64,000 bases of DNA from an uncultured delta proteobacterium (GTDB lineage Bacteria > Desulfobacterota > Desulfomonilia > UBA1062): the NCBI GenBank assembly GCA_963785235.1, contig CAWAUM010000012.1, positions 96,001-160,000 of the forward strand, in the 5' to 3' direction. The notes under the pieces were generated by a model. It saw only the letters and a program-made list of their open reading frames with translations. It did no database searches and was not told the DNA's origin. A program made the position numbers and the translations under genes. This document shows positions 21,079 to 21,918 of this stretch, piece after piece. How positions within the stretch are numbered: position 1 is the stretch's first letter; every line of letters begins with the position of its first letter.

Positions 21079-21918
21079 ATGATTCATCGGCAATTGTTTA
21101 TTTCCATAATCAGGAACATTATCTTTATAGTATTTTTGTTGTTGTGCTCTCTTGCTCATGCGGCTTCGCCGCAGTTGACGCTCAGTCATCTTGTCGGGCG
21201 AATCTATGTTGTGGAGGACTCGTACTACTCGAAAGAAAATTCCGTCGTCTATGTCGGCACGGACTCGGTGACCGTCGTCGGTGCTACGTGGTCTCCGGAA
21301 ACAGCAAAACTCCTCGCTGAAGAGATTAGGAAGGTATCCGACAAACCCATCAGCGAAGTCATCAATACCAACTACCATCCAGACCGCGCGGGCGGAAATG
21401 ATTATTGGAAGCGTATAGGTACCCAGATCATCTCGACTCAGATGACATACGACCTTCTCAAGAGCGATTGGGTCAAGGTTGTAGACTGGACACGTAGCGG
21501 AATTCCAAGCTATCCCCGCCTGCCGCTGGTTCTTCCGACAAAGACTTATCCAGGTGATTTCGAACTCCAAGGTGGTCGAATCAGAACTCTTTACCTTGGG
21601 CAATCACACACTCCAGACGGCATTTTTATATATTTCCCTGAGGAAAAGGTTCTCTACGGTGGCTGCATTCTGAAAGAGCAGATCGGTAACCTCTCTTTTG
21701 CCAATATAGAGGAATATCCCAAGACGCTTCAGAAGCTCAAGCAACTCCATCTCGAAATCAGAACCGTTATTGCTGGACATTGGTCAGCCGTGCATGGGCC
21801 GGAACTTATAGACCAGTATCTGGAGCTGCTAGGGAACAGTTCGGCTATCGAGCCATGGGCCAATGGGGCTATGGCCCAACCAAAGGTTCCAGCGAACGCG
21901 GCGGTGCCGCGCCGCTGA
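21079..21918 (+). CDS. Cassette 2: subclass B2 metallo-beta-lactamase (CphA/Sfh-like)
   Basis: Signal peptide; [16 protein letters not shown] (Asn116, His118, Asp120), HTPDG, GCILKE, GNLSFA, GH; colinear with CphA as recalled. Confidence 0.93.

Follow-up and report, generated by a model that had tools for sequence, protein, structure and literature searches.

We analyzed a 64,000-nt stretch of contig CAWAUM010000012.1 from an uncultured delta proteobacterium (assembly GCA_963785235.1, contig positions 96,001 to 160,000; referred to as the window) that harbors a metallo-beta-lactamase gene of subclass B2 within an integron. The integron cassette that packages the B2 gene lacks a promoter, has a ribosome-binding site of its own and includes an attC site of 59 nt. 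It belongs to a chromosomally fixed integron of a Syntrophaceae/Smithella-like anaerobe. On the evidence laid out here, we consider it very likely that this is a functional B2 beta-lactamase gene on a genuine integron cassette of a mobile lineage. The kind of enzyme and the kind of vehicle are both known; their combination is new.

The original prediction had described a gene with the motif N-Y-H-P-D-R, His196, Cys221 and His263, and all of this was recovered in a plus-strand open reading frame (ORF) of 279 aa with an ATG start (coordinates are given in Table 1). In the numbering of the protein itself, the motif residues are N98-Y-H100-P-D102-R103, H177, G194-G195-C196, K199, N204 and H234. 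Their equivalents in the alignment with CphA are Asn116, His118, Asp120, Arg121, His196, Gly219, residue 220, Cys221, Lys224, Asn233 and His263, with numbers following the BBL scheme as set out in the available text of PMC10740994 and the CphA alignment. The metal ligands D102, C196, H234, H100 and H177 match Asp120, Cys221, His263, His118 and His196 of CphA, and Lys224 is also present. According to the same text, Asn116 replacing His116 marks subclass B2, and B2 enzymes bind Zn2 alone, Zn1 being inhibitory (PMC10740994).

Pfam recognized the general metallo-beta-lactamase fold alone (PF00753, E 6e-20). The NCBIfam equivalog for subclass B2 (NF033087) was passed with 375.8 bits at a cut-off of 240, and the score for the subclass B1 equivalog (NF033088) was 123.9 bits, below the cut-off of 200. 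The named B2 families are CphA, CVI, PFM, Sfh and YEM in the available text of PMC10740994. None of the five family cut-offs was reached (CphA 325.9 at a cut-off of 500, SFH 312.5 at 550, CVI 329.9 at 575, YEM 326.7 at 535, PFM 318.7 at 525), so that the earlier description of the enzyme as divergent was fair. By these scores, the enzyme would form a new named family. BLASTP against P0141, a CphA-family protein of A. hydrophila, gave 130 identical residues out of 219 (59%) with 0 gaps. The seven best PDB sequences, CphA or Sfh-I according to the Foldseek titles, matched with E values from 4e-93 to 1e-89 in gap-free alignments from residues 31-33 to residues 251-252; B1 enzymes came next, from E 1e-21.

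The phylogenetic tree comprised 88 rows: the window enzyme, 11 locus ORFs, 74 database proteins including two CphA proteins from Aeromonas and one SFH-1, and IMP-1 and VIM-2 as the outgroup. When the tree was rooted on IMP-1/VIM-2, all 86 B2-type rows, CphA and SFH-1 among them, formed a single clade with a support of 100, which was parted from IMP-1/VIM-2 by a branch of length 5. The window enzyme thus clustered inside B2 in the B1-rooted tree, and the predicted subclass was confirmed by the equivalog score, the metal ligands, the fold and the tree alike. Within B2, the enzyme was found in a clade of seven rows (support 98) together with L034, P0002, L001, P0006, P0005 and P0008. P0002 is a protein from a Desulfobacterales metagenome-assembled genome (MAG), and L001 and P0006 are from Propionivibrio (L001 from Propionivibrio soli). 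CphA and SFH-1 fell into a separate clade of nine rows (support 96). Judged by its placement, the window enzyme is a B2 member beyond the characterized group.

An AlphaFold2 model of the protein, calculated from a 42-sequence alignment, had a mean predicted local distance difference test value (pLDDT) of 86 and contained a 21-residue helix at residues 121-141. The last 22 residues (258-279) showed a pLDDT < 50 and were modeled as a disordered tail. All of the first ten Foldseek ranks for this model were CphA or Sfh-I. Ranks 1-8 had 59-60% identity, a root-mean-square deviation (rmsd) of 0.7-1.0 Å and a template modeling (TM) score for the target of 0.94-0.97, and ranks 9-10 were C221D mutants with an rmsd of 3.8 Å. 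The model was superposed on CphA at 0.7 Å over about 220 columns. B1 enzymes appeared lower in the list, with an rmsd of about 2-3 Å and 20-24% identity. On reading of the sequence, residues 1-28 resemble a signal peptide of the Sec type, in line with the original prediction. The gene product would be an exported zinc-dependent subclass B2 beta-lactamase, with export by the Sec system inferred. As in its family, it would act as a narrow-spectrum carbapenemase with one zinc held by Asp120, Cys221 and His263, and a second zinc at Asn116, His118 and His196 would lead to inhibition.

The original prediction had also pointed to G-G-C in the window enzyme where CphA has G-N220-C. The alignments showed that this difference is real. 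We counted the residues in the relevant columns of 158 B2-type proteins. Asn116 was present in 154, His118 in 155, Asp120 in 154, His196 in 158, Cys221 in 155 and His263 in 158 of them. At position 220, 81 proteins had Gly, 72 Asn and 5 Ser. Gly220 is the commonest natural state in the B2 family and Asn is the state of the CphA/SFH group, and Gly220 could not be upheld as a special feature.

The GTTGGGC cores are located at 21048-21054 and 21926-21932, and the GCCCAAC core at 21874-21880. The B2 gene is indeed bracketed by matching GTTGGGC/GCCCAAC cores (starting at 21048, 21874 and 21926), as had been claimed. The cassette's own R'' GCCCAAC (21874) is complementary to the 5' core GTTGGGC (21048) at 7/7 positions, which is the signature of circularization. 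As single-stranded DNA, attC2 folded with -19.7 kcal/mol (z -2.99; 2/200 shuffles were as stable), with paired R boxes and a bulged stem. The stop codon TGA of the B2 ORF (21916-21918) is within attC2, as are the last 15 codons, and the B2 protein therefore has a disordered C-terminal tail. The predicted position 2 in the array was correct, with cassette 1 (DUF1801) ending at attC1 (20991-21054). The integron integrase would excise cassette 2 as a circle and reinsert it at attI.

The surrounding array has the organization of an integron. Downstream of each ORF or ORF pair there is an inverted repeat, imperfect and 50-133 nt long, that extends from ...AAC to GTT...; all cassette ORFs are co-oriented on the plus strand, and attI lies between intI and the array. 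The R''/R' cores were exactly complementary (7/7) at 9 of the 12 testable junctions, namely at 7 of the 10 attC-attC junctions compared, at attI/attC1 and at attC11 and the attC12 remnant. With four of the seven positions free, the chance of an exact match is about 1 in 256 per junction. Besides attC2, attC1 (-23.3 kcal/mol, z -4.79) and attC3 (z -5.35) were also predicted to fold. We built a covariance model (CM), CM R1, from 8 array sites and searched the 64 kb on both strands with filters off at E<=1. All 13 resulting rows were within 20991-29806 and none elsewhere in the window. They comprised the 8 training sites, 2 untrained sites (26789-26838, E 0.18; 23446-23538, E 0.05) and 3 plus-strand echoes of training sites. 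As a positive control, CM R1 recovered four attC sites from clinical class 1 integrons, namely those belonging to aac(6')-Ib, blaVIM-2 and blaOXA-198 plus the one that follows blaOXA-198 (E 2e-7 to 2.4e-6); it missed the long attC of blaIMP-1. In structural type, attC2 is thus like clinical attCs. A strict scan for attC by pattern plus energy (RYYYAAC...GTTRRRY) was dropped since it found only 2 array sites, and looser patterns were dropped because of many false matches in coding DNA.

IntI aligned end to end with PDB 2a3v, "recombinase IntI4" (E 7e-93), including the integron-specific insertion. Its score for the class-1-type equivalog NF011946 was 340 bits and thus below the cut-off of 435, which indicates that the integrase is not of the class 1 type. 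On the intI side the array borders on a thiamin pyrophosphokinase gene, and on the other side on rsgA; with these housekeeping flanks and the low NF011946 score, it does not belong to the clinical class 1 integrons. Transcription would start from a promoter in the intI-attI region, and the cassette in position 2 should therefore be expressed. A promoter scan found 5 sites in this region versus 2.5 +/- 1.6 in shuffled sequences.

The cassette was also found in other contexts. L034 is a 4.8-kb metagenome contig with a B2 gene of 279 aa (NF033087, 378.1 bits), whose attC was matched by CM R1 with E 5.5e-12 and is identical to attC2 at 49/59 positions. In L034, the B2 gene is preceded by a polysaccharide-deacetylase cassette with its own attC and followed by an unrelated ORF. 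Identity between the window and L034 was 746/878 (85.0%) inside the cassette and at noise level in the 150-nt flanks (left 58/138, 42.0%; right 57/145, 39.3%). The homology extended from the upstream GTTGGG core to the cassette's own GTTG. The Shine-Dalgarno sequence of L034 is GGAGGA, with 7 more bases before the ATG than in the window.

In the freshwater sediment run X2, positions 283-438 of a 438-nt contig corresponded to 21047-21202 of the window with 0 differences. The first 282 nt of this contig were unlike the 3-kb window stretch compared; their last 30 nt, leading up to the junction, finish with what looks like the 3' half of an attC, a sequence that does not occur in the window. Further exact pieces from X2 covered 21221-21371 and 20336-20483. 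Gaps in contig cover in runs X2-X4 (for example, cassette 1 in X2; the metallo-beta-lactamase gene in X3 and X4) were not counted as absence. With the homology to L034 ending at the recombination cores and the identical piece in X2 behind another attC, the original description of the gene as mobilizable was supported. The L034 and X2 limits, together with core complementarity, attI, intI and the covariance model, also bear out that the cassette is genuine.

A further B2 gene was found on L004, a contig of 9064 nt (1-9064) from a MAG labeled Candidatus Peregrinibacteria, a label that may be a binning error. The B2 gene (2549-3325) encodes 258 aa with 64% identity to the window enzyme. L004 contains at least six attC-like repeats of 133 nt, with starts at 811, 1522, 3350, 4804, 8399 and 8848, each after an ORF, and the cores of the B2 unit are GTTAGAC (2505) upstream and GTCTAAC (3355) downstream. 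These repeats look like a second attC family, unrelated to that of the window, carrying a B2 gene. Related copies in other arrays support that the B2 cassette lineage can move, and B2 genes travel as integron cassettes with at least two attC families.

The homolog L001 of Propionivibrio soli SG131 (on scaffold 4; positions 6001-6856 of L001), a cultured betaproteobacterium, is a B2 protein of 279 aa with 78% identity to the window enzyme (NF033087, 370.6 bits). The DNA homology continues past the stop codon into a match for the left part of attC2. This attC-derived stretch has lost its R' core and no longer folds (z 0.15), and no attC was found upstream of the L001 gene. The Propionivibrio soli genome has two integron integrases, both on other contigs. 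L001 may be a cassette that has been domesticated or has decayed.

In all four public sequencing runs compared, contig depth peaked at 20906-21107 (attC1) and 22724-22824 (attC3). These peaks went up to 89 at attC1 and 47 at attC3 and had loose ends on either side, compared with a depth of about 2-6 in most of the other bins with cover. Since depth piles up on attC1 and attC3, many cassettes in freshwater, sediment and wastewater should share this attC family.

The genome of the window has 3.91 Mb and contains one integron integrase and one B2 gene. The relatives of its RsgA protein were 84-92% identical, and the named ones were from Syntrophaceae, Smithella, Syntrophorhabdaceae and Deltaproteobacteria, from which the host would belong to a Syntrophaceae/Smithella-like anaerobic deltaproteobacterial lineage. 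With RsgA 84-87% identical to proteins of Syntrophaceae, Smithella and Syntrophorhabdaceae, the environmental anaerobe proposed earlier is plausible. We surveyed 41 genomes: its own (G000), 24 of the same family including 14 congeners, and 16 of a sister family. The B2 model was over its cut-off in 1 of the 41 genomes, the window's own, and in 0 of the 14 congeners. The integron integrase was over its cut-off in 11 of the 41 genomes (7 of the 14 congeners, 10 of the 24 of the same family, 0 of the 16 of the sister family). The lineage thus commonly has the platform but not the B2 cargo, as is predicted for an acquired cassette.

Genes for B2 enzymes were widespread in public records. A word-indexed protein search gave 613 proteins at E<=1e-3, of which the best 120 had 62-100% identity, and 189 metagenome stretches with B2 relatives were confirmed by tblastn. 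Close relatives were labeled Desulfobacterales, Krumholzibacteriota, Opitutaceae, Peregrinibacteria, Ottowia and Propionivibrio. In public pipelines, such proteins already carry a B2 label. The original prediction had limited B2 enzymes to a few proteobacterial genera, which did not hold, as the records span several phyla and metagenomes are rich in them. A phmmer search of 1.84 billion representatives at 50% identity gave 3209 matches at E<=1e-3 but just 34 at E<=1e-30, with many fragments among them. B2 is thus an unusually compact family, although its labels come from many phyla. A search of 72,556 PLSDB plasmids returned no B2 gene at E<=1e-20. With the limit relaxed to E<=1e-4, 984 PLSDB records matched, all below 60% identity; 30 rows sampled down the ranking had 24-35% identity, and the named beta-lactamases among them were B1 enzymes of the IMP or VIM type with 26-30%.

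CM R1 missed the sites of L004 and the second site of L034. Since long or divergent attCs escape this model, cassette-borne genes should in truth make up more than 2-3 of the 84 related loci, though they are probably still a minority. No match to IntI or to the class D protein of cassette 3 was detected by tblastn at E<=1e-5 in the flanks of the 84 related loci. An exact 7/7 core test on the related loci (77 testable, plus the window) gave 6 positives including the window and L004. This test was neither sensitive nor clean, because it missed L034, whose cores are off by one base, and because three other positives were intracoding. L053 was left uncertain as a cassette: CM R1 matched just upstream (E 3e-4), yet the fold had a z of -0.02. 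Matches of an arm-duplex heuristic upstream of the genes (16/73) were set aside, as there was no matched control. At the C-termini of the relatives P0002, P0003, P0009, P0028 and P0030 we noticed tails of the form ..QPKVPTDAAKPRR or ..AQPNVSPDRLRSR. They read like translated attC of the same family, "AQP" being GCC CAA CC and the end being ..CGC TGA. These attC-like tails suggest that there may be more cassette-borne B2 genes.

We considered whether the protein, despite the fold and ligands of B2 enzymes, has a native function other than carbapenem hydrolysis, acts on another lactam or a lactone, or is weak or inactive, so that calling it a carbapenemase would not be justified in a host. The host lineage is a strict-anaerobe group, the enzyme lies beyond the clade holding all characterized B2 references used, and it differs from CphA by Pro for Thr at 119 and Gly for Asn at 220. 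However, all checked catalytic and substrate-binding residues were conserved, the gap-free alignment with CphA at 59% identity was matched by the close fit of the model, PDB 1x8h, titled "CphA (N220G mutant)", is a folded mono-zinc enzyme, and the adjoining cassette also encodes a beta-lactamase. Moreover, a metagenomic B2 enzyme with 51.48% identity to a CphA-family protein hydrolyzed imipenem in the CarbaNP test, as stated in the available text of PMC6598227. A different function is thus quite improbable in our view. An artifact of assembly or binning, by which the array came from another organism or was joined via repeated attC sites, would be conceivable for a genome assembled from environmental DNA, in particular as attC1 and attC3 gather attC-like words in all four runs compared and such repeats are common to many cassettes. 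We regard it as very improbable. The window is internal to its contig (96-160 kb of about 300 kb) with housekeeping genes on both sides, 10 of the 24 further genomes in this family had integron integrases over the cut-off, and contigs from run X1, in three pieces that overlap or abut, covered 20300-21193 without a break, across attI, cassette 1 and the start of the metallo-beta-lactamase gene, with 0 differences.

A rather unlikely reading is that the cassette is real and yet by now effectively sedentary cargo. Its chromosomal array would then shuffle only rarely and have poor expression, which would make it a reservoir curiosity and not a mobilizable gene. The integron has the look of a sedentary chromosomal one with its housekeeping genes on both sides. 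Toxin-antitoxin pairs make up 7 of the 13 cassettes when the HigA-like one is counted, the attC of cassette 12 is degenerate, and the Shine-Dalgarno spacing of the B2 gene is short. The lack of B2 genes on the plasmids searched and the chromosomal Propionivibrio soli homolog with its unfolded attC-derived stretch also fit. On the other hand, related or identical cassette sequence was present behind other neighbors in L034 and X2, attC2 is intact and of the clinical structural type, intI is of full length, and the cassette is in position 2 near a candidate promoter.

Several points weigh against a functional B2 gene on a cassette of a mobile lineage, the reading that we favor. The genome is in 13 contigs and 93% complete. 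Carbapenemase activity comparable to that of known B2 enzymes is probable, but it is inferred from the family. Translation may be weak because the gap between Shine-Dalgarno sequence and ATG is only 3 nt. The promoter calls are bare consensus matches and therefore candidates, and no RNA run is listed among the public runs containing the stretch. The tree was obtained by an IQ-TREE quick search with support from the Shimodaira-Hasegawa-like approximate likelihood ratio test (SH-aLRT) only. Owing to the short length and low depth (2-5) of the Logan contigs, a single contig supports the X2 junction, and X1, the best-matching run, may be the source sample. For most B2 relatives no cassette can be seen: with default filters, CM R1 matched an attC adjoining the gene in 2 of 84 related loci, and with filters off it did so in 1 of the 12 closest. 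The arm-duplex heuristic showed no enrichment (4/72 gene 3' ends versus 4/72 control windows).

CphA from Aeromonas hydrophila (PDB 1X8G, 1X8H, 1X8I, 3F9O) has the same metal ligands and Lys224/Asn233 as the window enzyme, the TM score (target) of the superposed model was 0.96-0.97, and both proteins are exported (predicted for the window enzyme). CphA has Thr119 and Asn220, whereas the window enzyme has Pro119 and Gly220. Unlike CphA, the window enzyme has a C-terminal extension of 27 residues, the last 15 codons of which are in attC, and its gene is on an integron cassette. The cphA gene is a resident chromosomal gene, in agreement with the lack of a plasmid match. Sfh-I/SFH-1 from Serratia fonticola (PDB 3Q6V, 3SD9) has the B2 ligands and showed 59-60% identity and an rmsd of 0.8-1.0 Å in Foldseek. 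It has Asn220, SFH-1 (P0140) clustered with CphA and apart from the window enzyme, and the SFH family score was far from its cut-off.

The blaIMP and blaVIM cassettes are also single-ORF metallo-beta-lactamase cassettes, and the attC of blaVIM-2 was found by CM R1 with E 9e-7. Their enzymes, however, belong to subclass B1 with His116 and had 20-24% (Foldseek) or 26-30% (tblastn) identity to the window enzyme. They sit on plasmids of clinical bacteria in class 1 integrons, whereas the platform of the window is chromosomal and not of class 1. B1 enzymes are described as His116, di-zinc, broad-spectrum enzymes in the available text of PMC10740994. The integron of the window resembles the sedentary chromosomal integrons of the Vibrio cholerae type (IntI4, 2A3V) in its full-length IntI, chromosomal site and toxin-antitoxin cassettes, and its integrase recurs in congeners (7/14), as in such integrons. 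Vibrio arrays are much longer than the 13 cassettes of the window. The window array differs from the Vibrio type by attCs of varying length (50-133 nt) and by two adjoining beta-lactamase cassettes at the promoter-proximal end.

Searches of openly available full texts yielded no account of a B2 gene carried as an integron cassette, though the supplementary tables of integron-cassette and metallo-beta-lactamase surveys may list some. To our knowledge, every other beta-lactamase class is already known on integrons. The enzyme "2N30" from hospital effluent is likewise a divergent environmental B2 enzyme beyond the named families (PMC6598227). As far as the available text of this paper goes, it was recovered from shotgun data by a hidden Markov model, was functional and hydrolyzed imipenem in the CarbaNP test. 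It is not presented as a cassette there; an integron-borne IMP-81 is reported beside it (PMC6598227). For Antarctic soils, the available text of PMC13674405 mentions integron-associated enzymes of classes A, C and D and two B2 sequences with no integron link. B2 enzymes are apparently unaffected by new cyclic-boronate inhibitors, according to the introduction of a B1-focused paper (PMC13616975, available text).

The finding extends an expected pattern and overturns nothing, and the integron is an ordinary chromosomal one. Since no prior B2 cassette or plasmid-borne B2 gene was found in the searches made, and as B2 enzymes are apparently unaffected by cyclic boronates, movable B2 cassettes in the environment, whose attC type is like those that clinical integrons handle, matter for resistance surveillance. 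Cassette carriage also offers a testable route to the patchy distribution of B2 genes. We put forward tentatively, as a possibility that is more doubtful than probable, that integron cassettes are a main vehicle spreading B2 genes among unrelated phyla, and that resident chromosomal B2 genes, such as that of Propionivibrio soli, descend from captured cassettes. The compact family, the labels from many phyla, and the presence of cassette members with unrelated attCs in at least two parts of the tree support this. If it is true, no more than one capture event would separate the lineage of the window from clinical integrons, because attC2 shares the structural type of clinical attCs.

Table 1. 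Features of the integron in the window (positions in the 64,000-nt stretch)
Feature	Position	Strand	Evidence or remark
intI, integron integrase, divergent from cassettes	19395..20384	-	TIGR02249 464.5 bits (cut-off 265)
Candidate Pc, TTGACA-18-CATAGT	20374..20403	+	10/12 consensus matches
Second promoter candidate	20491..20518	+	9/12 consensus matches
attI crossover core GTTATGC	20523..20529	+	Reverse complement of attC1 R'' GCATAAC 20991-20997; 37 nt before first cassette ORF
Cassette 1, DUF1801 ORF 20566-20952 + attC1 20991-21054	20524..21048	+	PF08818 E 6e-16; CM R1 55.6 bits (training site)
Cassette 2, B2 metallo-beta-lactamase, 878 bp	21049..21926	+	TT of upstream R' core to G of own R' core; homology limits with L034
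Shine-Dalgarno-like GGAGGG	21070..21075	+	3 nt before ATG; by reading sequence
bla, subclass B2 metallo-beta-lactamase precursor, 279 aa	21079..21918	+	ATG start; NF033087 match
attC2, 59 nt	21874..21932	+	R'' GCCCAAC, R' GTTGGGC; CM R1 67.7 bits (training site)
Cassette 3, class D beta-lactamase ORF 21954-22730 + attC3 22734-22790	21927..22784	+	NF012161
Cassettes 4-13	22785..29806	+	Pfam
Cassette 4, PIN+Phd		+	Pfam
Cassette 5, ICMT-like methyltransferase		+	Pfam
Cassette 6, BrnT/BrnA		+	Pfam
Cassette 7, ParD/ParE-like		+	Pfam
Cassette 8, Phd/ParE		+	Pfam
Cassette 9, VapB/VapC		+	Pfam
Cassette 10, SAM methyltransferase		+	Pfam
Cassette 11, CcdA/CcdB		+	Pfam
Cassette 12, HigA-like, attC remnant, R'' 29066-29072		+	Pfam
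Cassette 13, GNAT		+	Pfam
attC sites within cassettes 4-13	23446-23578, 24095-24146, 24682-24814, 25416-25472, 26116-26178, 26789-26838, 27659-27766, 28413-28472, 29747-29806		
rsgA, ribosome small-subunit GTPase, array end	29818..30876	+	PF03193 E 7e-46

The array had a guanine-plus-cytosine (GC) content of 39-50% in most bins versus 54-58% in the flanks. The SAM-methyltransferase cassette (26881-27627) had about 59% GC versus 39-50% for most of its neighbors, and cassettes of differing compositional origin adjoin each other in the array. Cassette 12 (28562-29197) looks decayed. It has an ORF of 61 aa followed by the HigA-like antitoxin (PF21716), and its attC has kept R'' GCCCAAC, with no recognizable R' before the GNAT cassette.

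The neighbor of the B2 cassette, cassette 3, encodes a protein that scored 286.7 bits with the class D model NF012161 (cut-off 250). No named OXA family cut-off was reached, the score for the OXA-198 family being 282.7 at a cut-off of 515, and OXA-198 was the closest match with 125/255 identical residues (49%). The ORF is intact, and the motifs STFK, YGN and KTG were recognized by eye. By these comparisons, cassette 3 would encode a new class D beta-lactamase. Copies of cassette 3 with about 99% identity were present in the sediment run X3 and the wastewater run X4. The X3 contigs diverge from the window at or near both cassette boundaries, which indicates that cassette 3 circulates too.

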